A stretch of DNA of 63,860 nucleotides, filler included, from Chrysochromulina tobinii (Eukaryota): NCBI GenBank assembly GCA_001275005.1. It is 6 parts of 6 records of this genome, joined end to end, with 100 filler letters (N's around TTAATTAATTAA, not from the genome) between each part and the next. Parts side by side here need not be neighbours in the genome. Positions count along the whole stretch, not along the records: positions 20,613 to 37,382 come from JWZX01000799.1; 5 more parts are not named here. One strand, given 5' to 3'. This document shows positions 722 to 46,622 of the stretch, piece after piece (positions within the stretch are counted from its first letter, which is position 1; each line of letters starts with the position of its first letter). The notes beneath the pieces were generated by a model that was given only the letters and a program-made list of their open reading frames with translations, was not told the origin of the DNA and searched no databases. The position numbers and the translations under genes are program-made.

Positions 722-1005
722 CTGAGCGGCGGCGCGCGACGCGTGAGCTGTGCGGGAGCGCTCGGGAGCCCTCGCGCTCGGGAGCTTTTCCGTGCTCGCA
801 AAGTGCGGTTTCACGGTGCGTCCCGGTCCCGGAAAGTTGTCGCTCAGCTCGGCGAGCTACTCGAGCCACGACTGAAGGCGTTCGAGATTGAGAAGTTATA
901 AGTTAGAACTGTTTTTTGGTCAAACTCGAGGCGATCTGGCGTGGCCTCGCGCGAGCGACGCCGCCGAGCCACAGGACCAGGTCGGAACAGCGCTGCGCCT
1001 TCCAG

Positions 1006-1662: not shown

Positions 1663-1976
1663 GCTCTACCCGATAGGAATCCTCGTACAATGTGTGTATG
1701 CCCCGATATCCATATACATCACTCCGACTTGACTTGGCTTGACTTGAGCTGTGGGGAACTTGTCACTTCCGTGAAAACACCCTTCTTTTATGAGAATCTT
1801 TTCCGCGGCCCCATCCATCCCACCACGAGCACCCGACCATGCCCACTCTCAGGACGCTGCTCTCGTTCGGACTTGTCAGCTGCGCGTTCGGTTTCAACGT
1901 GGCGACATTTCAGGTGGCGGGAGTGGCACGGCCAGCCTTGCGTGTCCGTCCGCCGGACATGTTCATCGGCTGAGCC

Positions 1977-2204
1977 ATGTCGACGGCGGTGAACTCACTC
2001 GTGTTCGCCACCGGGCTCACCGATGAAGTGACGGGCACTGGCTTCTTCCGTGAGAAGGTACGCCTGAGTCGCGAGCCCAAGACTGGTCTTCTGGCTGCCT
2101 ATCAAAGCGAACAGGCAACGCAGATCTTTCGCAACGTCTTGTTCTTCCTTGCTGCTGGTGCGCTGATTCAAGTCGCCAACAACTTTGATGAGCTGCGCAA
2201 ATAA
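1977..2204 (+). CDS. Small (75 aa) putative single-pass membrane protein
   Basis: ATG-started ORF with protein-like composition and a C-terminal hydrophobic stretch (IFRNVLFFLAAGALIQV). No family recognised. Confidence 0.45.
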   Translation: MSTAVNSLVFATGLTDEVTGTGFFREKVRLSREPKTGLLAAYQSEQATQIFRNVLFFLAAGALIQVANNFDELRK

Positions 2205-2693
2205 GTTCAACCACGCAAAGAGCGCTCCTTAGCAGATCACGCTGGAAAATGTAAGCTCCCCAATGACGGGCGTCTCCGACAAGCCATGACGGTATTGGAG
2301 ACGTGCCCAGAGCACCAGGAGCTCTGCAACTACAGCTGAACGCCTGTGTAGAAGCGCCGTACAACGGTATCCGGATACTCGGCTTTGAAGGCTTCCGGGG
2401 ATGAGGCCCGCCCTCTCTTTTTTCTTTTTAGAGCATCTCCAGGATTTTACATGCCTCGCCTCGACTGACCGCGGTCACAAATTCTTCGAACCCGTGGCGC
2501 TGTGGTGTACTCGCCCGTACGCGGTCGTACGGTCCTACTCCTCGGTAGGCGCTGGGCGTTGGGCCGTTGGGCTACATGGCTTACGTCGAGACGGTTTCTT
2601 CAAAATTGTTTCTCCGATCCGCCTAGTGTCGTTCCCCGGCCGGGCAGCGGCCCAACGCACCGTCCGAGCGCAGCTTCGCGACTAGCTCTAGCA

Positions 2694-3069
2694 CTACGAC
2701 TGCAACATCCTACGACTGTCTGTTGGTGCGAGGCGCAGCACGGATCCGGGCACGCGCTCCTCCCCGTCGTCCGCCGCGGCCCTGTCGGCGGCGAGCGTGA
2801 GCAAGAGCCAGACCAGGAACTCGGTGCGCGAGAGCCCCTGCAAGCGCGCGAGTTGGTCGACCTTGCGCCGCGCGCGGCTCCACAGCGCAGGCGCAGGCGC
2901 CACATAGTCCCATCCAGACACTTCGCCTCCTTGCGAATCCGAAGCCCGCAGCCCAATGCTGCCCTCGCCGCCGTCCAGAGGCTCAAGGTGCAGGTGTGAC
3001 GGGTATGCGAACACGTCGAGAAAAGGCAAGTCGCCACTGTTGAGGTCGGCAACTCCTCCGCCGCCGTTC

Positions 3070-3113
<44 letters not shown>

Positions 3114-5216: not shown

Positions 5217-5329
5217 CCTCCCCCCCCGTTTGATTGCATGTCTGCATTGCGCGCGTGCCGGAACCTTTCGGCCAACCGTCTACGTCTTCATTGCATGCTT
5301 GAGATTCTTTCTTGACTCTTAGTTTCCTA

Positions 5330-6877
5330 ATGCCCAACGCGGAGTACGTCGGGCCGATCGGCGTCTTCGCGCACGACTTCAAGAATGCGGAGAAGTTGCA
5401 GGCGGCGGCCCGCGGTTATCAAGGCCGTTGCGAAGTCAAACGAATGCACAAGTCGTGCTTGGTCATCATCGCGGCCTTGCGAGGCAAAAGGGCTCGGAGG
5501 GCCTATAGGAAGAAGGTGCGAGCCGCGGAGATAATTCAGAAGAGCGTGCGAAGGAAGCAAGCTGCGCTCGAGGAGAGCCGGTCGCGTGTCAAGGAGCTTT
5601 TCCGTGTCGAGGCCGCCCGCACGATCAAGCGCTTCATTGATGCTGTTGACGACGAGGATCTCGAGGCGCTGGGGAAGGTGGTCACCACCACCTCGACGCT
5701 GATCGTCGAGCTGCAGGGCGCGGGGGTGACCGTGTCGAATACGTACAAGGGCGTGCGCAGCTTCATCTCCAAGAAGCAGGAGGCGTCAAAGAAAGGGCTG
5801 CGCCACGTGAGCCTTGACGTGATGCCGCTGCGGCTCGTCGCAGAGTCCTTCACGTTCCCGCGCAGCGGCACCAAGCCTGCGCTGGTCGCGGAAGCCACGT
5901 ACGTGCGCGACGTGCAGGGTGGGCGGCTCCAGGCGCGCCTCGAGTACGTGGTCCGAACCGCCAACACCGAGGACCGTGAGAAAGGCCGCAAAGCCTGGGT
6001 ATTGCTCAGCATGGGTATCCCTCCCCAGTGTCACGTGGTCACGCACCGCATCATGCACCAAAGGGCGGACTCCTTTCTCGGGCTCACCGCACCGAACCCG
6101 GACGTTACATGCGAAACAACAGCCAAGATGGTGGGCTCGGCACCGCCGCCGCCGCCGCAGCAGCAGCAGCAGGAGGAGGAGGAGCCGCAGCCGCAGCCAC
6201 AGCTGCAGCTGCAGCAGCGGTCGGTGTCACTTCCCGTATTAAGCGTGCCGGCGAAGATCATGGTATACTCGCACGGGGCTGCCGACCAGGTCAAGCGGCA
6301 AGCAGCGAGAGGTTCGATCTTCTCGGATCCAGTACGCATCGAGGCAGCAGTGCTTGACCTCACGAGGTGGCTTGACGAACGCAGCCCGGCCGGGACTCGG
6401 CTCCAGCGTCCAGGCTCCAGGAGTCGGTCCAGGCTCCTGGCTCAGGCCTCAAGCAGCGGCCAGCATGGCTCCAGCCTGGAGCCATGGCCTCCAGAGTGCA
6501 CTCGCAGCCGCAGTAGGGACATTAGGGTGCTGCCGCCGCTGCCGCGTCTACCCGACTTACCGCTGTGGCTCCAGCCACCCGAGAGCCGCGCCATCGCCCG
6601 CGACCGGCGCGCCCTCAGCCGGCATCTCTCGCGCCAGTCAGTCGGTCGGTCGGGTATCTCGTGGTCGCACCATTCCGCGGTCTTCCGCCTCAAGTACAAT
6701 GGCAACCTGCGCACGGGAACCGGCATCCGGCTGGCGCCGACTGTGAAGCTGAAGGTGCCGCTGTGCGGCCACCCAGGACAGGCGACCGCCTCGGCGCTGC
6801 CGCTCATGAGCACGTTACCATCGAAGTTCGAGGCGGAGCCTGGAGAGGAGGCGGCCCTCTCCAACACCATTATTTGA
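5330..6877 (+). CDS. IQ-motif-containing protein of unknown function
   Basis: Long ORF with IQ-like motifs LQAAARGYQGR, IIAALRGKRARR and IQKSVRRKQ, followed by an NTF2-like or unknown region and a low-complexity tail. Confidence 0.65.
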   Translation: MPNAEYVGPIGVFAHDFKNAEKLQAAARGYQGRCEVKRMHKSCLVIIAALRGKRARRAYRKKVRAAEIIQKSVRRKQAALEESRSRVKELFRVEAARTIKRFIDAVDDEDLEALGKVVTTTSTLIVELQGAGVTVSNTYKGVRSFISKKQEASKKGLRHVSLDVMPLRLVAESFTFPRSGTKPALVAEATYVRDVQGGRLQARLEYVVRTANTEDREKGRKAWVLLSMGIPPQCHVVTHRIMHQRADSFLGLTAPNPDVTCETTAKMVGSAPPPPPQQQQQEEEEPQPQPQLQLQQRSVSLPVLSVPAKIMVYSHGAADQVKRQAARGSIFSDPVRIEAAVLDLTRWLDERSPAGTRLQRPGSRSRSRLLAQASSSGQHGSSLEPWPPECTRSRSRDIRVLPPLPRLPDLPLWLQPPESRAIARDRRALSRHLSRQSVGRSGISWSHHSAVFRLKYNGNLRTGTGIRLAPTVKLKVPLCGHPGQATASALPLMSTLPSKFEAEPGEEAALSNTII

Positions 6878-7265
6878 AGTTAAAGAGAACCGAGAACTAA
6901 CGCGAGAACACGTGTTAACAACCTCGATATTGCAGTCACTGCAACTGCGAACGGAAACGCACCGCGGCCACTATAGAGAATATAGACAATGCGCATCGCA
7001 CCCGCGGCCCCGGCGCGCACTCCGCCCCCCACTCGCGTCGAACTCGCCTAACTTCCAAACGGCTGCGCTAGCGGTAGCACACTGGCCACCCTGCCACTGG
7101 CCTCACAGCACTGCACACCCACACACCTCACAGGCCCACCTGCAGCCCCCACACGAGAGCGTGACCGATGGCGTCCACAGAGACAAGGGTGCATTTCGGG
7201 CGCTCGATGCGTACGGCTCAATGCGTACGGCTGTATCTCGCGAGGCGCACGGTAGCGCCGCGGCC

Positions 7266-8807
7266 TCACTTCGCCTGGATGCTGTACATGTCTCCGCCAG
7301 AGCCGAAGAGATTGCAGTGCACGTGCTTCCCGGCGGCGACAGCGTAAACCCGACCGTCGTCCATGGACTTGATGTCAGCAGTCACCATGGAGCCGGAGGT
7401 GACCATCGTGAACAGCGGCTCGGCTGCTTGCACGCCAAAGACGGCGATCTGTGGCGAGACGCCAGCACTCCCCCCCCACGTAGCCACCACGAAATGCTTG
7501 CCATCCTCGGAAGCTGCCATGGCGCTGGGCAGGTTCTGCACCGTAGAGCCAGCGTCGGAGGGATACGGGTACGTCCACAGCGGCGTCATCGGCGCCTTCA
7601 CATCGTGCAACATCACGGTCACCTGTGTGTACGTAAGCGCCGTCCAGCCAATCGCGAGCGTGTGCGAAGCTTCCCCAGCGGGCTCGGATGACCTCTGATG
7701 ACCTCCGATGACCTCGGATGATCTCGGATGAGCTCGGATGAGCTCGTCAGCTTGAATCGTCTGCACGCTGCACGCGGCAGCAAAGGCTGCACCCGGCGCA
7801 GGACCGTTCAGGCTGGCGACCTGGTCGTAGCTGGCCCCATCCTTGGACACGTGGAAGAGATCAAAAGTCTCGAAGCCATAGCCCATCACGGCGCCATCGC
7901 GCGAAAAGCAGAGGGTGCTCGTCGAAAAGTCGAACTTGTCCTGCCAGAGCAACGTGCCTGTTGAGCGCTTGATGACGGCCACGGCCACCTCCTTCGTGCC
8001 GGACACGACCGCCGCAAAGAGGTTGGTGGTGCTGATGAATGCCCGAATGTTGCTGTCCCCGAAAGTAGTGTTGTCGGCGTTCCACACACCCAAGAGTCCG
8101 CCTGTGGCCGCGTCCCATTCGTACATTTGCCCGTGGAAGCCGGTCTGGGCTGGGTACGGAGGGAGGGCGTATGTGACGGCGACGCTGACCACTTGCCCAT
8201 CGGGTGAGACCCCGATGGCGGTCGCGCCAACGTTGCGAATGACGGTCTCCCAAAGCTTAAACCCGGTGCTTGTCACGGTGGCAGTCACCGTGCACTGGGC
8301 CGCGTCGGCACCCACCGCACAGAGCGCGCTAGCCGTGATGTTTTCCGCCGACGCGCTGATGTAGCCTTGGCCCGATGCGGACCACACTACCGTGGAGCTG
8401 TTCGCGTTGTACACGTCCACTGCTGCCTCGGGCCCGCCGTTGTCGCCGAGACTCGCGGCGATGAACGGCACTGGGTCCAACGAACCGTCGCCGTACGAGA
8501 ACGTGGTGGTGTCGTAAATGGCTTCGTCGTCGGAGACGTGGAAGAGCACTTTCCCCGCGAGTGGCATGGGCGCTGACGGCAGCGTGACACGCTTCGTCGC
8601 GTTGTTGTGGATGGAGAAGCTATCCGACTCGGCTTTCCACTGCGCCAGTTGGCGCCGAACCTGTTCGTCGGGGGCGTTGCCGATCATCTGCCGCACCGTG
8701 TGCGGCAGCTCCTGCACTACTTGGCGGGGCACCAATGTGGCAGGGAAAGCGACCGCTACATGCAGGACGCACGCCAGACTCGTGGCAGCCCGAATAAACG
8801 ATGCCAT
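7266..8807 (-). CDS. Secreted beta-propeller-like (PQQ/WD-like) protein
   Basis: Signal-peptide-like MASFIRAATSLACVLHVAVA. Repeated TG.xLW and SxDG turns (TGFKLW, VSPDG, TGTLLW, FSRDG, SEDG). Confidence 0.7.
   Translation of the reverse strand: MASFIRAATSLACVLHVAVAFPATLVPRQVVQELPHTVRQMIGNAPDEQVRRQLAQWKAESDSFSIHNNATKRVTLPSAPMPLAGKVLFHVSDDEAIYDTTTFSYGDGSLDPVPFIAASLGDNGGPEAAVDVYNANSSTVVWSASGQGYISASAENITASALCAVGADAAQCTVTATVTSTGFKLWETVIRNVGATAIGVSPDGQVVSVAVTYALPPYPAQTGFHGQMYEWDAATGGLLGVWNADNTTFGDSNIRAFISTTNLFAAVVSGTKEVAVAVIKRSTGTLLWQDKFDFSTSTLCFSRDGAVMGYGFETFDLFHVSKDGASYDQVASLNGPAPGAAFAAACSVQTIQADELIRAHPRSSEVIGGHQRSSEPAGEASHTLAIGWTALTYTQVTVMLHDVKAPMTPLWTYPYPSDAGSTVQNLPSAMAASEDGKHFVVATWGGSAGVSPQIAVFGVQAAEPLFTMVTSGSMVTADIKSMDDGRVYAVAAGKHVHCNLFGSGGDMYSIQAK
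7682..7746. repeat. 6 x 10-nt GGATGACCTC-type tandem repeat, in frame inside the CDS
   Basis: ggatgacctc tgatgacctc cgatgacctc ggatgatctc ggatgagctc ggatgagctc, flanked by GCTCG at 7682 and 7742. Confidence 0.85.
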
Positions 8808-8984
8808 GTCGATGATTACTGTCGCGACGCTCGTACAGACAGAGCTTCCGTCCGCGGCCACGGAAAAACATGCATCACGGCCACAGAGGGGGGGGACTCT
8901 TTGTTCAGGGTACCCGGTAGTCAATTAGATTCGTCGCGGTCCCCCCGAACTTTGATCAGAACTTTGATCATTTCACACAGTCAG

Positions 8985-9061
8985 TCAATCAGTTTCGTCG
9001 CGGTCCCCCTGCGCTCACCTCACTTGCTCAAAGGACGGCTCCGCTCCCCTCGGTCAACACA
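8985..9061. repeat. Dispersed ~80-nt repeat, copy 1 (partial extra copy at 8921-8945)
   Basis: TCAATcAGTTTCGTCGCGGTCCCCCTG..GCTCACCT..CTCAAaGGACGGCTCCGCtCCCCTCGGTCAACACA matches 11618-11699. Confidence 0.85.
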
Positions 9062-9285
9062 AGTATACCGACTACTGTGTACTCGCCATCATGGTACTCG
9101 CTCGCTCGGCCCAGGCTCGGGCTACTCAATCTCAAATCTCAATTTCGCAAGTGAGGTCGAGGTCTCTCTTACCCTGAACCCCCCTCCCATTTCACACATT
9201 TAACCTCTGAAGTCTGATGATCCTCCGTCGACTGTCCACATTAGGGACCACTCTAAAATCCTCACACAAAATCATTCGTGGACGA

Positions 9286-11541
9286 TCACCCGGGAAGGAT
9301 CAAATTCTTGGGTGGTTCGCTTCCGCGCCGCGCCACCGCCATACGCGCCTGAGTCCCGCGCCGCGGTGGTCGAATGCCCAATTGCACGCCCAATAGACGG
9401 TAGATGAGGAAACCCATCAGGAACGCGAAGCCAAAGGGAGAGAGGAAGTAGAAGAAGTCAATCAACTCGATCGCATTGTGACGGCTCATCAGCCGGAGGA
9501 GGTGCTTGGAGAAGGGGCGCACCACCAGCCGGCGAATGCCGATGCGCACGCTCCCGAGAAACTCGGGGTACGGCCGCATGAGCAGCTCGACAACTTTCCG
9601 AAGATCCTCAGCTGGGATCAGGCGGTTTGAGTCGTACCACGGTTGATTCGCCCATCTCTCCCAATACCCAGGCGCATGTGAATGTACGCGTTTTGCGGTT
9701 GGCGGCGGCCTCGGTGTCGGTGGGTCTGTCTTGTCCTGCAGCTTGTGCTTCTGCCAGTTCGCCTTCAGCTTCTGCGCACTGTCGCTGTCGTCTGGATCGT
9801 TCTCAATCTCGTTCATGATTTCTTCTGCGTTCTTATACCTCTTCGCTTCGAACTCCGCCTGAGCCTTTTCGACGTCCGATGCCACCACTTCACCATGTTG
9901 CGCGGCGAGCACTTTATCTAGGGACCCGCACAAGCCGAGCAGCTTCGAAGCGGTAGCCGTCTTGTCGTGCTTCGCCACGAGCGTGTACAGCGTGCCCGCC
10001 CGCGCCACGTGCCATGACTCGTCCGTCGAAGCTTCAACATCCACGAGCGCGCACGCCGCTTTCAGGTCCTCCACCGTGCACTGTCCACCATCCGGCAAGG
10101 CGAACAGCGACGCGACAGAGAACAGCGAGAGAGGCTGAAGCCCCTGACCTGCCCCCCGGCACTCATTGGCACACACCTTTCTCATACCGTCGGCATTCTC
10201 GGCGCACTCCTGTAAGTGGACCCAGTGCTTGCACAGCTTGCGCGGCTCCAAGCCCTGACGAGTCACCGTCTTGGGGGAGTGGTGATGAACGGCGGTGCTG
10301 AACGGGGCTGCTGCCGCTGACGCCGCCGCCGCCGCCGCCGCTGACGCCGCTGACGCCGGTATGCTAGGGGTGGACGCGGGTGATGGACGAGGTTGCTTAG
10401 CCGGCTGCGGGACGTGCGCCTGGCCTGACTTTCCGCGAGTCATGGACTCGAGCGTCTGCTTGTCGTAGACCACGCGCCCGCCCGGCGCCACATTGATGTT
10501 ATCCTCGATAACCTTGCGGCTGCCCTTGCGAGCCATGAGGTCGTGCGTCTGCTGGTCGTAGATCACCTTGGCCCCCGGCGCCACGTAGATACCGTTCTCC
10601 TGAAGGTTGAGGTCGCCGCCTTCCGCCTCAAAGATACGCTTGAGGTTGCCGCCTTCCGCCTTCGCCTCCGCCACGTGGATGTGCTTCCACTCGCCCTCCG
10701 AGGCTGAAGGTTGCACGGAGCCTTGAGGCTTCACAATTGTGACCTCGCCCACCTCGGCCCACTTGCCACCGCCGGGCAACTCGGGCATCGTCGTCACCTT
10801 CCCGTCTGGGGTATTCTCGGTGAGCATGAAACGCACGCCTTGGGCCATGCTCTCGCTCAAGCTGACGAACCCGTCCTTGTTCGTGTCCGCCTTGAAAAAA
10901 AGCTCTCGTACCTTCTGCTTGGTCATCAAATAAGGTCCGTTTGGATCCGAGGTCATGTATCCCGGCGCCATATCGGTATCGATACGGACGCCGACGAGCA
11001 ACTCCTCGAACTGCTCCATCGTGAGAAGCGTCTCGCCGGCTGCATCCCGTGTTATTGAGTCCAGTTGAACTTCACTTACTTTCCCCCACTGGCCACCCGG
11101 TCGCGCCGTTTGAGTGGCCTGCGAATGCTGCTCTGCCGCCGCCTGCGCACCCCTCTGGCGGCGGCGGTTGCGTACGGCAGCGGCCGGCTCCGCTGGCGTC
11201 GGCACCACCTGCAGCAAAGGTGGCGGAGAGGGTGGTGGCAGCGGCTGCGGCGAGGGCGGCGGGGGTGGCGGCTCATCAATCTCGATGGGACTCTGCAGCA
11301 TCGCAGCCAGCTCGGGATCGAGGTCACCAAAATCGTCGACGTCGGCAACGCCGGAGCCCAAGCCCTGCGGCAGCGCACCCGCCTGCCTGACAAGACTGGC
11401 AAAGGTGGCAGACTCAGGGACCTCCTCGACCCCGTTCCGATGGATCGATGGAATGCCCGGAGTAGCGTACTCTCGGCGACCGGCTGGCTCCGCTGTGCCC
11501 GAAGCCACTATCAGGAAAAGCGATGATGCGCCCACAGTCAT
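9286..11541 (-). CDS. Predicted membrane protein with EF-hand and ShK-like domain
   Basis: Possible signal peptide MTVGASSLFLIVASG, EF-hand loop DTNKDGFVSLSE, ShKT-like CKHWVHLQECAENADGMRKVCANEC and a C-terminal hydrophobic segment. Start codon uncertain. Confidence 0.7.
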   Translation of the reverse strand: MTVGASSLFLIVASGTAEPAGRREYATPGIPSIHRNGVEEVPESATFASLVRQAGALPQGLGSGVADVDDFGDLDPELAAMLQSPIEIDEPPPPPPSPQPLPPPSPPPLLQVVPTPAEPAAAVRNRRRQRGAQAAAEQHSQATQTARPGGQWGKVSEVQLDSITRDAAGETLLTMEQFEELLVGVRIDTDMAPGYMTSDPNGPYLMTKQKVRELFFKADTNKDGFVSLSESMAQGVRFMLTENTPDGKVTTMPELPGGGKWAEVGEVTIVKPQGSVQPSASEGEWKHIHVAEAKAEGGNLKRIFEAEGGDLNLQENGIYVAPGAKVIYDQQTHDLMARKGSRKVIEDNINVAPGGRVVYDKQTLESMTRGKSGQAHVPQPAKQPRPSPASTPSIPASAASAAAAAAASAAAAPFSTAVHHHSPKTVTRQGLEPRKLCKHWVHLQECAENADGMRKVCANECRGAGQGLQPLSLFSVASLFALPDGGQCTVEDLKAACALVDVEASTDESWHVARAGTLYTLVAKHDKTATASKLLGLCGSLDKVLAAQHGEVVASDVEKAQAEFEAKRYKNAEEIMNEIENDPDDSDSAQKLKANWQKHKLQDKTDPPTPRPPPTAKRVHSHAPGYWERWANQPWYDSNRLIPAEDLRKVVELLMRPYPEFLGSVRIGIRRLVVRPFSKHLLRLMSRHNAIELIDFFYFLSPFGFAFLMGFLIYRLLGVQLGIRPPRRGTQARMAVARRGSEPPKNLILPG

Positions 11542-33906: not shown

Positions 33907-35948
33907 TCACATCTCGGCCACTTTGAGGTCCTGTGCGAGCATCTTGGCCGCGATGGGGTGGTAGTTCGATCGGTGCTCGAGAAAGGTTTGGACGGCGAGC
34001 TCGCGCTGCGCCTCCCAGCCGTAGAGCGCGCGGTAGAGCGGGCGCACGAACTTCATGCGCCCTTGCTCCGTGACGAAACCAAGCACCTGTGGAATGATGA
34101 ACTCGGCGCGAGAGAGGATGCAGATGCGCTGCCAGCGCAAGCGCACCTCGGCATTCTTGGAGGCACTGAGCTCATACAGCCGATCCATCTTCTCGAGCGC
34201 GCGGAGCGCCAGCGGCGCCCCTTTGCCCTCGAGCGCGCGCGCGAGCAGCGTCTCCCAAAAGAAGATGCGCAGCTGGCTCGGCCACCCCTTGTACTCGGCC
34301 GCGGAGGCGTCGAGTGACAAGTCGTCCGCGGCGAGCTCTGCCATCCAACGGTCAGCGAGCACGGTGCACGTCGCCCCAAGGGAGGGGTCGAGGACCGGCG
34401 TCACCGGCGGCATACCCGGTGTTTTGAACCACGCGTCCCAGTCGACTGAGCTCGCGTCGATCTCGCGCCCTTCACACCACTTGAGGAAGCATTCACGGAA
34501 GTCGGCGGACGTGAGCGTGCGCCGCTTGAACGTGCCGATGTAGTGCGCGGCGAACTGCTCAAAGATGGGGCGTCCGCCCACGATGGCGCTCAGGTGGCAG
34601 AGGAGCGAGAGGCCCTTTTCGTACGGCACCGCGCTGAACGAGTCATCTGGATCGATGCCATCCAGCGGCGGGATGAGCCGGGTGAGCGGGTTGGTCGGCC
34701 CGAAGGTGGCGACATCGTCGGCGAGGTGCGTGAGCGCCTGCTGCACCTGGAAGTCGAAGAAGGCGTCGCACCGCTCGGCGGGCTCGAGGTGTGCGAGCGT
34801 ACTCGTCTCGAGCCACCGCGTCCACCCTTCGTTGAGCCAAAAGTGCTCCCACGTCAGGTTCGTCACCAGGTTGCCCGTCCAGGAATGCGCGACCTCGTGG
34901 CAGATGACATTGGCCAGCGAGCGGTCGCCCGCGAGCAGCGTGGGCGTCGCAAAGGTGAGGCACGGGTTCTCCATGCCGCCGTACGGGAAGCTCGGCGGCA
35001 TGCAGAGGATGTCGTACCTGTGAACAGAGCACCGAGCACAGAGGGACCTGTGAAGAGGGACCTGTGAAGAGGGACGCTGTGAAGAGGAAGCTGTGAAGTT
35101 TCGAGGGAGATGGGTGGCTCGGCGCGTCCTGCGCGCAGATGAGAGGGTCGGCTGCGGAGGGCGCACCGCCCCCACGCGTACGGCGTCTGCGTGAGCTCCT
35201 CCGCCTTGGCCACGAAGCGCTCGGCTTCTGCGAACTCCCAAGCGGCGGCCTCGACGACACTCGGCTCAGCCCAAACGGTCGTGCGCGAGCCTACGTTGAT
35301 GCCACGCACGTCGCCGACGGCGAGGGCGAGTAGGTACGACGAGAGCGGGCACGTCTGCTCGAAGGTGAAGGTGCGCAGCGGAACGCCGCCCACGACGCTG
35401 GCGACCGGCGAGCCCACGGCCACCGCGCTCATCAGGGCCGTGGCCCACTCCGGCACCCGGACCGTGGCGTCGTACGTAAACTTGGCGGCCGGCCCGTCAG
35501 GGCACGGGAGCATGGAGCGCGCGTGGATGGCCTGGCACTGGCTGAACATGAACGGCCTCTCCTTGCCCGCGGTCTGGGCGGGCGGCAGCCACTGCAGTGC
35601 CGACGACTTGGGCGAGGTGGCGTAGGTGACGGCGACCTCGAGTGCTCGGCCCTGCTCCCCGAGCCCCTCGGGCAGCGTGATGGCGCACGCGACACCGAAT
35701 GCAGCATGTGCTGGCCTCATCGTGTGCGGCGCGGGTGCGCCGCACACGGTCACGGAGCGCACCTCAAGCTCGGACGAGGTGTCCAGGACGAGCTCAGCCA
35801 CCCGGTGCTCAGCGACGTCCACAGTCCAGGTGGCGACGCCTTCGAGGACATGGCGCTCAAAATCGACTGACAGGCTGAGGTTGAGGTGCTTGTAGACGAA
35901 GGACGCGTGGTTCGAGAGCGACGACTTATCGATGCGACAGTCGGCCAT
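33907..35948 (-). CDS. LTA4H: Leukotriene A4 hydrolase-like M1 aminopeptidase; intron 35018-35166
   Basis: ALQWL.P.QTAGK..PFMFSQCQAIHARS, YAWGR|YDIL, PPSFPYGGMENP, HEVAHSWTGNLVTN..W.HFWLNEG, VPYEKG and QGRMKFVRPLY motifs. Confidence 0.95.
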
Positions 35949-36083: not shown

Positions 36084-36265
36084 ATGCGTGTCTCGACAGC
36101 CTCGACGATGGCCGCGACGGCGGGCGGCCTCGCTGGCCTCTGCCTTCTCCGCTGCCGCCGCGCTGCGTCAACGTTCAGAGCCGGCGGCGGCGTCGCGTTC
36201 GAGACCCTCGACGTATTCACCACGCGCCGTTTCGGTGGCAACCCGCTTGCCATCGTACCCGAGTC
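36084..36265 (+). pseudogene. 5' portion of a PhzF-family epimerase/isomerase gene, interrupted by a repeat array
   Basis: Transit-peptide-like leader, then FETLDVFTTRRFGGNPLAIVP matching the PhzF N-terminal DVFT..F.GNPLAV motif. Homology stops where the array begins. This could be exon 1 of an intact gene. Confidence 0.7.
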
Positions 36266-36670
36266 ACGTTGGGCGAACGCCCAACAACTCTAGTTGGGCG
36301 AATCCGAATGCCCAACAACTCTAGAATCCAACTCTACACGCGCTAATACCGAGTCGTCGGGGGAAAGCCCAACAACTGCCGGAATCACTCCAGACGCGCT
36401 AATACCGAGTCGTCGGGGGAAGGCCCAACAACTCGCGGAATCACTCCCGACGCGCTAATACCGAGTCGTCGGGAGAACGCCCAACAACTCGCGGAATCAC
36501 TCCCGACGCGCTAATACCGAGTCGTCGGGAGAACGCCCAACAACTCGCGGAATCACTCTAGACGCGCTAATACCGAGTCGTCGGGAGAACGCCCAACAAC
36601 TCGCGGAATCACTCCAGACGCGCTAATACCGAGTCGTCGGGAGAACGCCCAACAACTCGCGGAATCACTC
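36259..36670. repeat. Tandem array of 6 x 56-nt units plus two degenerate hairpin units
   Basis: ACGCGCTAATACCGAGTCGTCGGGAGAACGCCCAACAACTCGCGGAATCACTCCCG starts at 36338, 36394, 36450, 36506, 36562 and 36618. Confidence 0.95.
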
Positions 36671-37382
36671 ACTCTCTCTCTCTCTCTTGGGACCAAAAAA
36701 GCGGTTAGCGAGATCTGCCGTCATCTGTGTCTTATATCCAGAGTTGAATTCGGCCGCAATAAGCACCGTGTTGGCACGCGTGTAACCAAGAGATTCGTCG
36801 AGGCGCTCAAATGAGAGGACGAAGGGGGTGGTATAGATGAGTCCGCTCAGTGTGAGGGTGACTCCCGTGTAGAAGCAAGCGCCCTCCTGGTCTACGTATT
36901 GTTGGAGCGCCCAGGCGAGGTCGAGCTCACTACGATCACGATCACGTTTTGTTGGCCCTTTTTGGCGCAGTCGTCGCGCAAGTGTCAAACGCAGGGGGTG
37001 GTCGCTAGCTTCCGCGGCGGCGCGGGTGGCGGCGGCGTGAGTACGGCGCACGTCTGTGTCGGCCTCCCATCGCGCCCGCGTATAGACGATCGTGAAGACC
37101 TTGTCCTGGTCGAGCCCGGCCGTCGTGTTCCAAATCAGGGGAACCACGTGGAAGGTGCCGACGTCGTACGTGCAACATGACCCACGGATCGCCCAGTTGC
37201 GGTCGATGGAGTACGCCCACGGATTGCCCCACGTGCCACCTGGGCGCACGTCGAGCTGCAGGCGGAGGGGCGGTAGTGGTGGCGGCGGCTCGACCCCGAC
37301 TGGCCACTCGGCGAGTTGCAGGCGCCGCTCGAGCTCGCCGCCGCGCCAGGGCACAAGGCCACGCTGGTGGACCACTTGCGCG
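36665..37382 (-). CDS. HNH/His-Me-finger-like endonuclease domain protein, 5'-truncated by contig end
   Basis: LDL...QQYVDQEGACFYTGVTL...LSFERLDESLGYTRANTVLIAAEFN resembles the Q.G.C.YSG..SLERLD..GY..N HNH-like family. A degenerate upstream copy reads QRGL..PWAYSIDR..Y..VVPLIWN. Confidence 0.7.
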
Positions 37383-37482
37383 NNNNNNNNNNNNNNNNNN
37401 NNNNNNNNNNNNNNNNNNNNNNNNNNTTAATTAATTAANNNNNNNNNNNNNNNNNNNNNNNNNNNNNNNNNNNNNNNNNNNN
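37383..37482. other. Artificial contig-joining spacer
   Basis: N44-TTAATTAATTAA-N44. Confidence 0.97.
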
Positions 37483-39568
37483 ACTCCGCAAGCACGGACG
37501 TGAACGTGATCGGCATCGTCGCGCTGCCCGTCGCCATGAGCATGCCGCCCTTCAAGACCACGAGCGCTGGCGCAACCGACGAGTTCGTCGGGATGGAAAA
37601 AATGGAAGTTCCGGGCGCGATGGTGAGCGTGACACCCGAGGGCACGAAGACCTGCGTGGCCATCAGGTACGAAGTGCTCGAAACGAGGTTCGTGCTGGCA
37701 GAAAGCGTTCCGCCGAGCATGACCGTCGTCGGTGCGAGCGTCGCGAATGGCGAGGCCGGAAGGGCGGTGCACGTGCGGCCGGCCATGTTGCCGCTGCACG
37801 CGAGCCACGAGTAGCCGGCGAGCCAGTTGTCCGTCGAGGAGGCGAACGCGCCCTTGCACGTCACCGACGAGAAGAAGGCGTCGCCGTTGGGGGGTGCGTC
37901 CTTGGTGCCCGTGCACGCCGCGCCGGTGGCGGATGGCAGAGGGTTGAAGGTGGCGGAGCCCTCCGCGAGGTCAGTGGTGGCGACCGCAACGAAGCCGGGG
38001 GGACCAGAAACCGCCGTCCACGTGTCCGCGACTGTGCAGGCGGCGACGCCGGAGCCGCCGGCTTGCAGAGCGAACTGCAAAAAAGGCTGCGTCGTGTCGA
38101 TGATGTTGTTGGCCGAGAAGTAAAAGTAGCCGGGGTTCGAAATGCTGACCGACGCCGCCGGCAGCGTCTGCGTGTAGCTCATCGAGCCGCAGTCCTCGAA
38201 GAGGAGGCCGTGCAAGTTCGGGAAAGCGAGGATGCCGTTGCCGAACTTGCCACCCGTGCCGTCGTTGACGTGGATCAGCTCGCCCGTACGCGCGCCAGTG
38301 CCGGTGCCTCCGCCGATCAAGGTGAACGAGTAGAAGGCCGGGTGCGAGCGCGGGGTCACGTCCTGATTCGAGCCGACGCCCGAGTCGATCTCCATCGAGT
38401 GGTCGCCCGTCAGGCCCTCGATGACAAACAGGAACTGGCCCTTGCCAATGTAGCCCTGGTCCGTGTCGAAGCCGTCGTCGCCCACGAAGAGCACCGACAG
38501 GTACTTGACGTTCACCGTGCCGCCGAAGAACTCGAAGCCATCGTCGAGGTTGAAGGCCACCTCGCAGTGGTCGACGATGGTGCCGGAGCCGACGCCGCCG
38601 AAGGTGATGCCGTTGATCTCGTTGTTCGCGCCCACGATCGCGCCGCCGTGCCACACGCGCACGTACTGCAGGGTGCCGGACGAGTCGGTCGGGTTGGTGC
38701 CGCCGTACGTGCGGCCGGTGATGCCCTCGATTTCGGTGGTGGTCGCCACGTTGGTCGGCGCGTTGCCGAGCAGGATGAGGCCGCCCCACTTGCCGCGCGT
38801 CTCGAGCACGGTATCCGCGCTGGTAGAGTCAGTCGACACCGACGACGACGACGACACGGTGGGGTTGAAGGCAGTGAAGGTGATCGGCGAAATTGAAGTG
38901 CCAAGTGCTAAGACCCGTCCCCCCTTCTCGATGATCAGGGCTGGCGCACCGCTGCCATCGGCAGCCAACGGCGAGGCGTAAATGGTCACGCCCGCCTGAA
39001 TGGCCAAGGTGATGCCCGACGGAACGAACGTCTGGCACGTGAGCACGTAGAGCGCACCTCTGTAGAGCCTCCTGTCTGCCGAGAGGGTGCCGCAAAGAGC
39101 GACGGGGTCGTCAGAGTCGCCAGGGTCGGCCGCCGAGGGGCACGTAGACGTCGAGCTGACAAAGCCCGGGCGGTTGGGCAGGTTGAAGAACGACCAGCCA
39201 TCGAGCCAGTTGACGCTGCCGAACGCGCCCTTGTACGTGGTCGCGCTGAAAAAGACGTCGCCGTTGGGCACCGGGTCGACGTTCGAGTACGCGGCCGGGC
39301 CGCACGCGCGCGGGTCGATCGGACTAGTGCTGGTCTCGGTGAACGTGCCTCCTGAGATGAGCGGATTCGTGTTGACAAAGGCCGGCGCCGTGCCAGTGCA
39401 TGGCGACACAATTTGGAAGCCGGCGGTGGGGCTCTCGATGATGTTGTTCGACGAGAAGAACAGGTACGTGTCCAGCGACGCCGACGACGCCGGCAGCACC
39501 GACACAATGGACGGCGCGGCGCTGCCGCTGCTGCTGCAGGTGTCGATGCGGATGCCAGGGTGCGTCGC
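37483..39568 (-). CDS. Internal fragment of a repetitive beta-helix surface protein (paralogue or part of the 39669-46622 gene)
   Basis: Frame open across the whole contig. GKWGGLILLGNAPTN..DSSGTLQYVRVWHGG..NEINGITFGGVGSGT..DDGFEFFGGTVNVKYL is highly similar at DNA level to 43100-45790. Confidence 0.88.
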
Positions 39569-39668
39569 NNNNNNNNNNNNNNNNNNNNNNNNNNNNNNNN
39601 NNNNNNNNNNNNTTAATTAATTAANNNNNNNNNNNNNNNNNNNNNNNNNNNNNNNNNNNNNNNNNNNN
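39569..39668. other. Artificial contig-joining spacer
   Basis: N44-TTAATTAATTAA-N44. Confidence 0.97.
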
Positions 39669-42600
39669 GATGGTCGTGGTCGGGATGGCCTTGACGATCG
39701 TCGTCGCCTTCTTCTGGCGGAGCTTAAAGGTGCACACGATGATGGCGACGAGGAGCACGAAGGCAGTCACGCCCACCGCAACGCCGATCACCACACCCTG
39801 GGACACGCCGTCCCCGCTGCCCGCGCTCAAAGCCAGGCTGCCGGAGTTGATCGGCGGCGGGGGCGGAGCCGGCGGGGGCGGAGCGACGGCGATGGCCGTC
39901 GGTGCGACGTTGGCAACGGTCAGCACGGTGACGCCAAGGGCAGCGCTGAGTACGGCAGGCGTCCTCGCGAGTGTCGTCGCCCCAGCATTTGCCGCCGCCA
40001 GGCTCGGGTACACGATGGTGGCCTGGATGCCAACTGAGGCGGTGTAGACATTGAGCGTGATCACGGACGGGAACACGTTCATCTGGGTCGCCAGGCGGCT
40101 CTTGAATGCGTTCTGATCGAAGCTCGACACGTCGCCCGCCACGGTGAAGGTCGCTGTGATGGCGGCAACGTAGCTTGCGCCCGGCAGCAACGGCGGCGGC
40201 GGCCGCGGCGGTGGCCGCGGCGGCGAGGCCGGTGGCGAGGGTGGCGACGGTGGCGAGGCCGGTGGCGAGGGCGGCGAGGGCGGCGCCCGCGGAAACGCGA
40301 CGAGGGAGACGATGAGCTGGGGCGCTTCGCCCGTGGTGGAGAGGTGCGACTGCATGCCGCAGCCGTCGGAAAAGGTCGGCACTACGATCCAGCCGTAGTT
40401 GGGCGTGCCCGAGAGCCACGCCCTGACATTGTCGGTCACATCCACCGTGTGGGGGCCGGCCATGCACGGCATGTTGTGATCCGCCGCGCCGTAGGTGCTC
40501 GACGAGCCGCCAGTGATGCTGGTGGGCACGTACGGCAGCGAGACGTACGAGGTGGACATGCTCCACGGGACGAGGAGCTCGTGCAGCTCGCCCATGTTGC
40601 CCGGCGAGTTGCCGTCCCCGCCGATAACGTACCGGAGGGTCGCGGCCTGGAAGCGGCCCGCTGGAATCCCCGAAATGTTGAACCAGAGCAGCACGTAGTC
40701 GCGGTCCGTCTCATCTCGTGAGTTGCCGTCCCACCAGATGACGTTGTTCGGGTAGGGCGCTTGCGCTTGCACAGTTGTGGGCTGCGTCGAGCGGATCCAG
40801 GTCGACATGGAGGCGCTTGGGCCGGTGATAATGATGGCGTCGAGTGGCGGCGGGGGCGGCGGTGGTGGCTTGGGCGGCGGGCGGGGCGGCGAGGGCGGCC
40901 GCGAGGGCGGTGAGGGCGGCGCGGGCGGCGCTTGCTGATAGAAGACCCGCAGGTTGACGCGCCGGTCGGCGGGCGAGTTGCAGGAACGGAGAGCAGCACC
41001 GTTGTTGCCGCCCGTGGGCACCCAGATCCAGCCGTGGTTCGGTCCGCCCGATTGCCAGGCACCGACGGACATGGTGACGTCGATCTCATACCAGCCGGCC
41101 GGGGTGGCTGGTGCGATGCCAACCTCCACGGATCTGTAGTCCTCGTTCACGAGGAGGCCTCGGTTGCCCGCGAAGCTGTTGTACGTCGTGGTCGTGGCAG
41201 CCCATGGTTTGAGGATTTCGTGCAGGCTAGCATAGTCCCCGACGGAATCGGCCGAGGCCGAGAGGTCGACGAAGTAGCGAAGCTTGGCGCTCGTGATGAT
41301 ATCGTGCGGCTGGACGTGGTAACGCGCATTCCCAATGATGTCGGTGAACTGCACGAGGACATAGTCGCGGGTGCCAGCAACCTGCAGGCCATCCCACCAC
41401 AGATTCGTTGATTGCCACATGGCGGTATTCGGGGTACTCGATCTCAGCATCGTCGACTGGCACCCGCCGGAGACGGTGGCCGTCTCGCTGTTGAAATCGC
41501 GCATCCCGATGACCAGGGGCGAAGGCGACATGGGCGGCGGGATGGTGTAGGGGGGACGAGGCGGCGGCGAGGGCGACGGCGGCGCAAGAGGCGGGGTGGG
41601 CGGCGACGGCGGCGCGGGCGGCGCGTCAAAGTGCACCTCGAGCGCAGGCTGCTGCGCAACCGTAGCCCAATTTGCGGTGTAAATGCCGCAGCCGTCGCCA
41701 AAGGTCGGCACGAGGACCCAGCCGTGATTGGGCGTGCCCGTGAGCCACCTGTTGATGCTCGGCGTCACGTCGAGGGTTAGCGTGGCCCCGGCGAGAGGCG
41801 TAAAGACGTCGTTGACCGACGGGCCCCAGTACGTGTCGATGACCGCCAGAGGAAAGGGAAGAGGCATCTGCGGCATCGGCAGGTTGTTGTACGTCACGGT
41901 GCTCGCATTCCAGCCGCGGCGGAACTCGTGCATCTCCGCCACGTCGCCAGGGTTTGACACGGTGTAGCGGAAGAGCGCGCGGGAGATGGGAGCCATGCCC
42001 GATAGCGCGCTCAGGTCGAACTTGATCAGCGCGAAATCGACGTCGGTCCTGTGAGGGCGGCAGGTGGTCACGGGAGGAGAGAAGAACATGTGTGAGCAAA
42101 GGAGCGGAACGACGTCGGGATGAGGCCGGTGGGAGCAGCAGCTGATTTAGCTGAGCCGAACACGAGGGCAGAGAGAAGGTTTGTGCGCCGCTGGTGCGCG
42201 CGCACGCTGAATTTCCGTCCCAGACGGTCTCGGTGGCGGTGGCGAAGTTGATGGCCGGAGCAGTCATGCGCAGCCGCGCGTGCTGGGCGTTGCGGATCGT
42301 CATGACCGTGAACGGTGCGCGGGGCGGCGAGGGCGGCGGCGAGGGCGGCGGCGGCGGCGGCGGCGGCCGCGCGGGCGGCGAGGGCGGCCTGGGCGGCTGC
42401 TGCGCCACAAGCACGACCAGGTTGATGCGACGGTCTGGCGGCGCGCTGCACGAGCGCATCTGGGAGCCATCGTCAGATCCACCGAGAGACTGCGGCGATG
42501 GCATCCAGATCCAGCCGTTGTTGGTGTTGACGCCGCTGACCCAGCTCCGGACGCTCGCCGTCACATCGATTTCGAACCAGCCCGACCGATTCGCGAACGT

Positions 42601-45600
42601 GGTCGCAATCGCTGGCGTGCGGTACTCGGCCTCGTTGAGGCCTTGCGCGCCCACGAAGGTGCGGAACGTCGTGGAGCTCGCGTCCCACTCTTTCGAGATC
42701 TCGTGCACCTGGGCGGTGGCGCCTGGCGCGTCGGCGAAGAATGTTGGGTCCACGTAGTACCGGAGCGTCGCGCGTTGGATATACTCGTGCGGGCGCAGCT
42801 GGTTCGGCCCGGACCCGATGATGTCGGGGAACTGCACGAGCACCGAGTCGAAGTGGCCGACGGAGCTCTGCCCGTCCCACAACAGGCCCGTGTCTTGGGC
42901 GCCGATGTAGTCGGGCGTGTCGGAGCGGATCCACGTCGACTGGCAGCCGCCCGTGTAGCTCGAGTTTTCGCTGTTGTATGTGTATGTCAAGGACGGGAAG
43001 CTATCGAACGACGGCGGCGGCAACAGGGGCGGCGGCGACGGCGGCGGCGGCGGTGAAGGCGGCAGCGGGGGGCAGGTGAAGCTGGCGTTGACAAAGCCTC
43101 GACGGTTGGGCAAGTTGAAGAGCGACCAGCCATCGAGCCAGTTGACGCTGCCGAACGCGCCCTTGTACGTGGTCGCGCTGTAGAAGGCGTCGCCGTTGGG
43201 CACCGGGTCGACGTTCGAGTACGCGGCCGAGCCGCACGCGGGGCGCGGGTCGATCGGAACCATGCTGGTCTCGGTGAACGTGCCACCTGCGATGAGCGGA
43301 TCCGCGTTCACAAAGGTCGGCACCGTGCCATTGCATGGCGCCACAATTTGGAAGCCGACGGAGGGGTTCTGGATGATGTTGTTCGACGAGAAGAACAGGT
43401 ACGTGCCCAACGACACAGACGACGCCGGCAGCACCGACACAATCGAGGGCGGTGTGTCCTGGATCGCGCCGGCAGAGGTGTCGATGCAGGTATCGATGCG
43501 GATGCCAGGGTGCGTTGCGACATTGGCGAGGATGAGGTTGCCAAACTTGCCGCCCGTGGCCGTGCGCATGCGCATCATCGCGTTGCTCACGCGCATCGAG
43601 AGGGCGCCCGCGCCCACGAGGGTCATGCCGTAAAAGGCCGGGTGCGAGCGCGGCGTGCTCCCGTACCTCGAGTCCATCTCCGCGCCGTGGTTGCCCACAG
43701 CGCCGAGCAGAGCGAACAGGAACTGGCCCTTGCCGACGTAGCCCTCGTCCGTGTCGAAGGCGTCGTCGCCCGCGAAGAGCACCGACAGGTACTTGACGTC
43801 CACGGTGCCCCCGAAGAACCCGAAGCCGTCGGCCGCGTTATACGCCACCTCGCAGTACGCGACCGTCGTGCCGGAGCCGACGCCGCCAAAGGCGATGCCA
43901 CTGATGAGGCCGTTATTGCTCATTACACCGCCATGCCACACGCGCACGTACTGAAGAGTGCCCGACGAGTCGGTCACCACGGTGCCGCCGTACGTGTAGC
44001 CGGTGGAATATTGCAAGGCATACAGCTGCGTGGTGGTCGGCACGATGGTCGGCGCGTTGCCGAGCAGGATGAGGCCGCCCCACTTGCCGCGCTCGCCCAG
44101 CGCAAAGGCATTGCTGGAGAAGTATGGCACGGCGGTGGCGGAGCCGCTCAGTGCGCTCTCAGAGAGAATGGTCGTCAGAGTGATCGGGCTGCTCGCCGTG
44201 CCCGCCGCCAAGAGCATGCCGCCCTTCAAGACCACGAGCGCCGGAGCGGCAACGCCGTTGGGCACGGGCAGCGCAAAGATGGTGGTGCCGGCAGGGATCG
44301 TGAGCGTGACACCCGATTGCACGAAGACCTGGGAGGCGAGAATGTACGAGATGTTCGAGCCGAGGGCCGTGTTGGAAGAATAGTTGCTCGACAGCAAGGC
44401 GACATTCGGAAGCAGTGTCGCAAACGGCGGCGTCAGGGCCGCTCTCGCAGCGCTAGAAGCGCACGTGGATCCAACCATCTTGCCGCTGCAGGCGAGCCAC
44501 GAGTAGCCGGCGAGCCAGTTGCCCGTCGAGGAGCTGAACGCGCCCTTGCAGCTCACCAACGAGAAGAAGGGGTCGCCGTTGGGTGCTGCGTCCTTGGTGC
44601 CCGTGCACGCCAAGCCGCTGGCCAACGGCAGAGGGTTGAAGGTGGCGGAGCCCTCCGCGAGGTCAGTGGTGGCGACCGCAACGAAGCCAGGGGCGCCAGA
44701 GACCGCCGTCCACGTGTCCGCGGGCGTGCAGGCGGCGACGCCAGAGCCACCGGCGAACAGAGCGAACTGCGACGCAGCCGTCGCCGTGTCGATGATGTTG
44801 TTGGCCGAGAAGTACAAGTATCCGGGGTCCGAAATGCTGACCGAGGCCGCCGGCAGCGTCTGCGTGTAGCTCAGCGTCGAGCCGCAGTCCTCGAAGAGGA
44901 CGCCGTTCAGGTGCGGGTGCGCGAGGATGCCGTTGCCAAACTTGCCACCCGTGCCGTCGTTGACGCGCATCAGCTCGCCCGCGCGCGCGCCAGTACCGGT
45001 GCCTCCGCCGATCAAGGTGAACGAGTAGAATGCCGGGTGCGAGCGCGGGGTCGCGTCTTGATTCGGGCCGAGGCCCGAGTCGATCTCCATCGAGTGGTCG
45101 CCACCCAGGCCCTCGATGACGAACAGGAACTGGCCCTTGCCGACGTAGCCCTGGTCCATGTCGAAGCCGTCGTCGCCCATGAAGAGCACCGACAGGTACT
45201 CGACGTTCACGGTGCCGCCGAAGAACTCGAAGCCGTCGTCCACGTTGAACGCCACCTCGCAGTGGTCGACGACGGTGCCGGAGCCGACGCCGCCGAAGGT
45301 GATGCCGTTGATCTCGTTGCCCGCGCCCATGACCGCGCCGCCGTGCCACACGCGCACGTACTGCAGGGTGCCCGACGAGTCGGTCGGATTGCTGCCGCCG
45401 TACGTGTAGCCGGTGATGCCCTCGATCTGCGTGCTGGTCGCCACGTTGGTCGGCGCATTGCCGAGCAGGATCAGCCCGCCCCACTTGCCGCGCGTCGCAA
45501 GAACGGTAGAGTCGGTCGACACCGACGACGACGATGACTCGGTGGGGTTGAAGGCAGTAAAGGTGATCGGCGCAGTCGCAGAGCCCTCGGCGAGCAGAGA

Positions 45601-46622
45601 GCCGCCCTTCTCGATGATCAGGGCGGGCACGCCGCCGCCACCGGCAGCCACCGGCGAGGCGTAAATCGTGACGCCCTGCGCGATACGCAGCACGATGCCC
45701 GAGGGCACGAACACCTGGCATGTGAGAACGTAGGTTGGACCCCCCGCGAAGAGGAACGTGTCTTCCGAGAGGGTGCCGCACAGAGCAGGCGGCGAAAAAA
45801 AGGGGCTGACGCGATTGGTCGTCGTGTTGTCGCCGAGCTGGCCGTTGCCGTTGGAGCCCCAGCACTTGAGGGGCGTGCTGTTCGTCAGGTACGCGCACGT
45901 GTGGGAGTACCCGAGCGCCAGCAGCCCGACGGCGCCCCAGAAGTTGATCGTGGTCGGGGTGGCGCGTTGGGTCGTAGTCCCGTCGCCGAGCTGGCCGTTG
46001 CCGTTGGAGCCCCAGCACTTGAGGAGCGTGCTGCTCGTCAAGTACGCGCACGTGTGGTAGTACCCGAGCGCCAGCAGCCCGACGGCGCCGCCGACGTCGA
46101 TCGTGGTCGGGGTGGCGCGTTGGGCCGTAGTCCCGTCGCCGAGCTGGCCGTTGCCGTTGTAGCCCCAGCACTTGAGGATCGTGCTGCTCGTCAGGTACGC
46201 GCACGTGTGGTAGATCCCGAGCGCCAGCAGCGCGACGGCGCCGCCGACGTCGATCGTGGTCGGGGTGGCGCGATTGGTCGTCGTATTATCGCCAAGCTGG
46301 CCGTAGTTGTTGTAGCCCCAGCACTTGAGGATCGTGCTGCTCGTCAGGTACGCGCACGTGTGGGAGTACCCGAGCGCCAGCAGCCCGACGGCGCCGCCGA
46401 CGTTGATCGTGGTCGGGGTGGCGCGTTGGGCCGTCGTGCCGTCGCCGAGCTGGCCGTAGTAGTTGTCGCCCCAGCACTTGAGGAGCGTGCTGTTCGTCAG
46501 GTACGCGCACGTGTGGTGGTATCCGAGCGCCAGCAGCCCGACGGCGCCGCCGACGTTGATCGTGGTCGGGGTGGCGCGTTGGGCCGTCGTGCCGTCGCCG
46601 AGCTGGCCGTACCTGTTGGCGC
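39669..46622 (-). CDS. Giant modular cell-surface protein: RCC1-like repeats, 2 beta-helix modules, 4 DNRLRE-like domains with SPPP linkers, and TM; intron 42049-42205; truncated at both ends
   Basis: RCC1 repeats HTCAYL...LKCWG.N..GQLGDGTT with a 153-nt period, two beta-helix modules, four T.IRS..WDG..LVQF..ATLRY..HE..W..IDVT..V..W.SG..N.GW domains and TM VVIGVAVGVTAFVLLVAIIVC. The intron restores WDGNSA|TDVDF. Confidence 0.88.
45810..46622 (-). repeat. 153-nt tandem coding repeat (RCC1-like blades), about 5 copies
   Basis: CAGCACTTGAG anchors at 45860, 46013, 46166, 46319 and 46472. Confidence 0.92.

Follow-up and report, generated by a model that had tools for sequence, protein, structure and literature searches.

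A gene for a doubled PacI-type nuclease between inverted hairpin arrays in Chrysochromulina tobinii: a candidate low-copy selfish element that breaks a PhzF gene

What has broken a PhzF-family gene in the alga Chrysochromulina tobinii, and might the nuclease gene that ends beside the break, separated from it by a tandem array of hairpins, belong to a mobile element? The window (the whole stretch of DNA that was analysed, 63,860 nucleotides of assembly GCA_001275005.1 in six joined parts) holds a host PhzF-family 5′ fragment on the plus strand at 36084..36256, a leader and the first ~20 domain codons ending in ...GGNPLAIV. It is divergent from a host leukotriene-A4-hydrolase-like M1 aminopeptidase on the minus strand, outside the element (33907..35948; Pfam Peptidase_M1_N, Peptidase_M1 and Leuk-A4-hydro_C). 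Beyond the fragment, all on the minus strand, come an outermost modified array unit (36257..36292), a degenerate unit with part deleted (36293..36330), six 56-nt units (36331..36670), a (GA)n tract (36672..36687) that links the last conserved codons (GPKR) to the array, and a reading frame (36665-37375, TGA at 36665-36667) that stays open into an N run. This run (37383..37482, unstranded, with a 12-nt all-frame stop linker) is a contig join, not biology, and conceals the 5′ 86% of the nuclease gene; the five N runs (window 20513, 37383, 39569, 46623 and 62069) carry an identical 12-nt stop linker, so that neighbours across them are meaningless. The genes flanking the locus encode the M1 aminopeptidase and a glyoxalase II, flank sequence recurs in mixed-culture and freshwater runs, and close relatives of the frame cluster with two named C. 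tobinii proteins, all of which suggests a freshwater haptophyte, Chrysochromulina-like, as the host. Elsewhere, window 37483-46622, on contigs separate from the element, encodes large repetitive proteins that bear CBM96, RCC1 repeats and long repeats rich in beta structure, and intron-like stretches of short repeated motifs occur at window 35020-35170 and at 11040-11170 of another locus (L007, below), with inverted copies in the latter.

A metagenome scan reduced 53 candidate stretches to seven loci (L001-L007), of which L001 is the gap-free contig of the window locus: window 26724-37382 matches it at 99.4% (10.7 kb), and the window beyond the N-run gap has no match to L001 1-10000. PhzF homology stops at 36256, and the element/host junction lies at 36256|36257; the original prediction, made from the window alone, had rightly placed the end of PhzF at the start of the element, at a position (36259) that is here corrected to 36256. 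Full-length relatives (P0059-P0062) carry PF02567 and read ...GGNPLAIV then YDEEKQLT, and lake RNA contigs from two studies (runs X16 and X17) agree with the window as far as 36256, beyond which they run on in frame with YDEEKQLT. This empty allele, found with the same breakpoint in 2/2 lake RNA runs examined, shows that the proposed interruption is a true break and not an intron. In a DNA run (X1) that is perhaps the window's own source, one contig spans the whole stretch across the junction, and the empty allele is not among the X1 contigs examined. A contig from an RNA library that may hold DNA (X12) reads across the junction unspliced, and a spliceosomal intron in PhzF is rejected, the 3′ part being absent from the 11 kb of L001 and the lakes carrying an uninterrupted allele. 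That 3′ part, which had been expected at the other end of the element, is absent from L001-L007 and from the window and does not lie beside the upstream array (L001 1-11180). One further record, P0069, is a PhzF 3′ part with ~three codons missing, behind 58 foreign residues whose match to the array is weak (4 mismatches in 30 bases, equalled by 7/300 shuffles and 4/470 natural pieces).

The window's share of the interrupting gene (36665-37382, minus strand) is the 3′ end, 238 codons, of an L001 frame at 5045-10717 that encodes 1,890 amino acids counted from the first ATG, with two SAP domains (Pfam, E 3e-11), seven AP2 repeats and two nuclease domains. The AP2 repeat profile matches five plant AP2 structures, the best being AtERF1 (E 4e-7), and Pfam AP2 is matched by 2/7 repeats taken singly, both below the cut-off. 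This protein (P0093) and six near-identical 1,890-aa records come from 23 contigs, the longest contig measuring 6.1-6.5 kb for 6/7, as expected if assemblies break at arrays on either side of the gene. Between L001 and L002 the nuclease core differs by 7, 5 and 22 bases at codon positions 1, 2 and 3, respectively, and the core reads as being under purifying selection. Three longer relatives found carry SAP, AP2 or OTU and no other Pfam domain, among the best 7,995 candidates scored. N-terminal parts vary widely across the family (OTU, SAP, an intron-containing insert, LRR), and L002 appears to carry a spliceosomal-type intron. As separate observations, the AP2 region of L003/L004 differs from that of L007 (8879-9602) by a 724-nt segment inverted between assemblies of one locus, either a real polymorphism or a misassembly in repeats, and L006/L005 hold at 5225-5263 a single family hairpin. 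It lies on the sense strand in this case and precedes by ~260 nt a gene with the family N-terminal module at its start and BspA-type leucine-rich repeats at its end. By its module order, this BspA-repeat gene appears to be a case of domain shuffling in which the promoter-side hairpin was retained.

The window frame (P0001) has no Pfam match and does match phage endonuclease families (PHROGs, E 3.5e-9). A profile search at E<=0.001 gathers 1,081 relative clusters, an uncurated family with no Pfam model that takes in Polarella glacialis and, judged by fold, klosneuviruses and pithoviruses, and whose architecture is tandem zinc-finger plus PacI-type domains (P0098-P0237), the zinc-finger part not being evident in P0001. 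Among 140 proteins scored, drawn from the best 150 relatives and five close ones, three have four domains and 125 have two; in both domains of the latter, Q, C, S-x-E-R, Y, N, E and N are each kept in 91-100% of rows, and His is absent. In a 120-row alignment, E192 is kept in 117, R193 in all 120, Y200 in 116 and N213 in 112; PacI is the best PDB sequence match of that profile (E 5e-4), with identical spacing, and its D92, R93, Y100, N104 and N113 align with E192, R193, Y200, N204 and N213. The C-terminal domain occupies 36743..36889 on the minus strand (Q165, C169, S190, E192, R193, Y200, N204, E211 and N213 of P0001) and a diverged N-terminal copy 37127..37366 on the same strand (Q6, S-I-D-R at 58-61, Y72, N85), which keeps D-R, Y72 and N85 with a longer loop, its Q6, Y72 and N85 columns aligning to the first repeat of the family. 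A model built with the family alignment has a pLDDT of 85.6; the top rows of its Foldseek search against the PDB are all HNH domains, none at E<=0.001, and a structure search of viral proteins gives 11 matches at E<=0.001, one of them named HNH endonuclease, the best being full-length tandem-domain giant-virus proteins of Yasminevirus (E 3e-6, TM 0.55), Fadolivirus and Pithovirus.

On these alignments and folds, the domain encoded in the window reads as a His-Me finger of the His-less PacI type, doubled, at the C-terminal tip of a SAP/AP2 protein. The earlier call of an HNH-like nuclease agrees with the PacI alignment, the model and the HNH fold matches, and holds as regards the His-Me finger; what it missed is the His-less PacI type, the doubling and the 1,890-aa SAP/AP2 context. 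The two His-less domains are predicted to form a single-chain equivalent of the PacI dimer that would cleave the two strands of the DNA, a Tyr standing in for the catalytic His. In PMC5714182 the PacI group (His-Me finger group 20) is described as mainly viral, and the Tyr that takes the place of the catalytic His is considered a possible nucleophile, HUH-like; the same residue is treated as a general base in PMC4081073.

The array itself is as first described. Tandem Repeats Finder (TRF) reports a 56-nt array at 36306-36670 with 6.5 copies and 94% matches, and the full 11-bp stem pattern has 5 matches in the window and 0 in 100 shuffles. Each of the six full units of the window (seven in L001) comprises an imperfect inverted 11-bp motif pair, a 6-nt loop and a ~28-nt linker, and together they are likely the right subterminal array of the element. 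The nuclease stop does lie in the innermost unit, as had been noticed, and the further statement that units differ in loop and linker applies except to one full unit of six (36351-36378), which differs in the outer stem pair too. The outermost modified unit was assigned from sequence, the empty allele and fold (profile match, E 3e-8); its perfect hairpin (36268-36285) is set 11 nt in from the junction and does not start exactly where PhzF ends, as had been thought. A CRISPR array, also dismissed at the outset, is rejected, the linkers being near-identical, without unique spacers. The arms contain CCGAC and CAACA, which we take to be plant AP2 binding cores and thus a lead.

In L001 the gene stands between two sets of such repeats. 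Upstream and inverted are three 56-nt units (4226-4384), two single hairpins and three 55-nt sister units (4600-4756); downstream, at 10719-11182, are seven units and two modified ones. These inverted arrays lie ~7 kb apart with one 1,890-aa gene between them, and they appear to flank it in the manner of subterminal inverted repeats. A contig of single-copy depth spans the left junction in X1, a run in which the array unit has a depth of ~1550 as against 73-92 for single-copy DNA, a rough estimate of about 18-20 units; 17 full A-type units are seen in three arrays, and because this is close to the depth estimate the array is probably confined to nuclease genes of the family. In the sequence examined, then, the array is not independent of the nuclease family. 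A ~80-nt direct repeat in L001 (2709-2790 and 2833-2911), at 10-20 times single-copy depth in X1, seems to be another small dispersed repeat, possibly an intron-borne element.

In a second copy, L002, the frame is followed by seven units and then by a metallophosphoesterase gene cut after the GNHD region, with a 26-nt host duplication and filler at the junction. Another ~30 outer bases are common to L001 at its left end and L002 at its right (0/5000 shuffles score as high), and since the window's right end is without them, the element end there may be truncated or rearranged. In two records from other assemblies (P0009 and P0020, 2/8 tails tested) the tail continues into the array, with which it agrees at 30 bases out of 30. 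All seven loci are alike as far as the (GA)n tract and then diverge within a few bases. In 5/7 (L003, L004 and L007 at one site, L005 and L006 at another) no array follows the stop, and these sister sites part from each other 3 nt after it; the prediction's question whether the array always accompanies the frame is thus answered in the negative, and, two distinct sites lacking it, the comparison points to an array-less sister subfamily and to an array that is dispensable for the family. The L007 copy has a host gene upstream, a Smr/CCCH gene downstream, and neither array nor TET gene. In L006/L005 a SET-domain gene is represented by its C-terminal half (866-1345), which starts 3 nt past the nuclease stop; as an aside, the TAG there might also serve as a splice acceptor, in which case this nuclease copy would lie within an intron. 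Junctions thus cluster just past the stop codon or the array at four distinct sites. A target-site duplication (TSD), another expectation of the original prediction, is not found at plausible ends in a search for repeats of 4-12 nt, nor do the bases at the PhzF junction recur at the left end.

The reading we favour, to which we give about an even chance of being right, is of a low-copy selfish element in which a nuclease gene between inverted hairpin arrays spreads by cutting and repair. The AP2 repeats would bind the 11-bp motifs of the arrays, holding the nuclease at the element's own ends; the tandem nuclease would cut both strands; and the host DNA break would be healed using an element end as template or partner. 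Ends joined by repair would leave junctions without a TSD, occasional filler or duplicated host sequence, and separated host-gene halves, the last either through a one-ended event or if the mobile unit extends beyond the 11 kb seen. Since the remainder of PhzF does not adjoin the left L001 array, a simple cut-and-paste of the 7-kb unit is not established. The broader proposal that the locus is the end of an unrecognised mobile element with a virus-related nuclease is upheld by the His-Me finger, the PhzF break and the confined array. For the element as a whole no DDE, HUH, RT, recombinase or capsid match was found: 14 long L001 frames (1-10717) give no Pfam transposase match, although introns, divergence or a longer element could hide such a gene, and the full-length proteins have only SAP, AP2, OTU and nuclease domains, with no HUH Rep and no helicase. 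A Penelope-like or non-LTR retroelement is rejected, there being no RT domain in the three longer relatives (3/3) or L001 and no Rfam match to ribozyme motifs. In listings from searches of the open-access literature, no description of such an element appears.

A bolder version, which we consider unlikely, would make this a new class of eukaryotic transposon of giant-virus derivation whose sole enzyme is the tandem PacI-type His-Me finger; its catalytic Tyr would nick single-stranded end hairpins and become covalently linked to them, as in HUH enzymes, the AP2 repeats reading the arrays. A good deal less remote, though still doubtful, is that the locus forms the right-hand terminus of a conventional DNA transposon of greater length (KDZ/Zisupton, EnSpm or Plavaka type), with its transposase further upstream or in trans, the SAP-AP2-nuclease and TET/JBP-like genes as accessories and the arrays as ordinary subterminal repeats. 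In its favour is an L001 frame on the plus strand (2945-4111) with an H-x-D...H pattern like that of TET/JBP 2-oxoglutarate dioxygenases, which ends ~120 nt from the left array and ~95 nt outside the left end's shared outer segment. In fungi, DNA transposons of several lineages with defined TSDs (KDZ, EnSpm, Plavaka and others) carry TET genes as passengers (PMC12730594). The genes of L001 2300-4135 have extra copies in X1, partial second ones in the case of the TET/JBP-like gene, as would suit a larger element, and the missing half of PhzF could lie at a distant true end, as P0069 may indicate. SAP and OTU, both found in family members, are Zisupton-type accessories. Against this, the TET call has an Atlas score of 0.88 (below the 0.9 line; 176 features, Tet_JBP on 16% of the cluster) and no Pfam or PDB match, the 14 frames are without a transposase, and the L007 copy sits between host genes with neither array nor TET gene. 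For KDZ/Zisupton in particular, SAP, OTU and a TET-like neighbour are present, and within L001 neither a transposase match nor an 8-bp duplication about the 7-kb unit is seen; for EnSpm/CACTA and Plavaka, with their 2-3 bp TSD, the ends seen read otherwise, being without a duplication of 4-12 nt and not CAC..GTG, TGT..ACA or CATCA..TGATG, though the far end may lie outside L001.

There may also be no discrete element at all, a reading we hold to be improbable, in which a resident, domain-shuffling nuclease family has had its neighbours broken by ectopic recombination or repair at fragile arrays. The separated PhzF halves, the wide differences among N-terminal parts, the inversion between L003 and L007 inside the AP2 repeats, and the duplication and filler at the L002 junction would all suit such a history, but the clustering of junctions at four distinct sites and the symmetry of the arrays about the gene would not. 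That the locus is what remains of a giant virus or Polinton-like virus (PLV) once endogenised, its terminal or origin repeats surviving as the arrays, seems to us highly improbable. The closest full-length structural matches are giant-virus proteins and the PacI group is mainly viral (PMC5714182); yet 2.9 million viral contigs hold no relative or array (one single-hairpin match), the GC content of 0.67 equals that of the host flank, L002 appears to have a spliceosomal-type intron, and no capsid, packaging ATPase, polymerase or integrase match lies within 11 kb. Cryptophytes and haptophytes are described as having HNH genes carried by PLVs (PMC12220804), but in the 11 kb of L001 no PLV gene is present. 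We give least credence of all, very little indeed, to the array as a set of repeated functional RNA hairpins in a 3′ UTR, close to the repeated structured RNAs of the original prediction. The minus (mRNA) strand does fold better into a repeated hairpin (z -6.25, versus -3.17 for the plus strand), and of 37 non-Watson-Crick cells on this wobble strand, spread over five stem positions, 24 are G-T, 1 is A-C and 12 are other. Single units nevertheless fold weakly (z -1.4), Rfam has no match to the array, and among 15 hand-picked units and hairpins 0/11 pairs changed on both sides, covariation being equal to that of shuffles (209/500). In L001 the wobble strand is the outward-running strand at both ends; the inverted upstream arrays are antisense to the gene, and the mRNA strand there would read the non-wobble side. 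The G-T bias, drawn from related rows whose cells are not independent, fits single-stranded DNA too and is a modest hint of single-strand folding that is not specific to RNA.

Returning to an element that spreads by cutting and repair, comparison with known systems suggests where it would belong. With PacI (PDB 3ldy/3m7k) the window nuclease shares the His-less active site, its spacing and viral relatives; unlike PacI, it has two domains per chain, with Glu for Asp in the C-terminal one, and is fused behind SAP and AP2 repeats in an array-flanked algal nuclear gene. Phages have free-standing HNH-AP2 homing endonuclease genes, of which the PacI-like kind is rare and differs in presence from genome to genome (PMC12724721). 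Like these genes (PHROGs 99, 953, 3322 and 3118), the element combines a nuclease with an AP2 module, is variably present and needs no transposase, and by this analogy it would work most like a free-standing phage AP2-nuclease gene; unlike them, it has seven N-terminal AP2 repeats and inverted hairpin arrays, and in place of one cognate allele it shows four unrelated 3′ flanks, with PhzF and phosphoesterase genes broken. Terminal inverted repeat (TIR) transposons (EnSpm/CACTA; TET-bearing KDZ and Plavaka; PMC12730594) likewise have inverted repeat-rich ends and many DNA-binding modules, and resemble the element in SAP/OTU domains and a TET/JBP-like neighbour, but here no DDE transposase match or TSD is seen and the termini do not fit. 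HUH transposons (Replitrons, Helitrons, IS91, IS200/IS605) have imperfect hairpins near an end and possibly share a catalytic Tyr with it, and in them a TSD is usually absent and one end sharply defined (PMC10288648); they differ in having an HUH Rep/helicase, for which no counterpart is seen here, and single hairpins with short direct repeats in place of inverted tandem arrays.

Eukaryotic DNA transposons are known to use DDE or HUH enzymes (PMC10288648). Tyrosine recombinases are a third known kind. The unit described here is polymorphic, breaks genes and resides in the nuclear genome of an alga, and between its inverted hairpin arrays there is nothing but a virus-related nuclease of PacI type joined to a long run of AP2 repeats; set beside known mobile nuclease genes, it appears to be an undescribed variant of that kind. 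If the protein moves the element, it would add a route of mobility in eukaryotic genomes, and if the transposase reading is true, this would be the first HNH-fold enzyme to act as a transposase. The element also supplies a testable function for an uncurated family of 1,081 clusters that extends over giant viruses and at least one dinoflagellate, and a direct test of whether the PacI-type Tyr acts as general base or nucleophile, a matter on which PMC5714182 and PMC4081073 differ. With its modular AP2 repeats, such a nuclease could serve as a programmable cutter.
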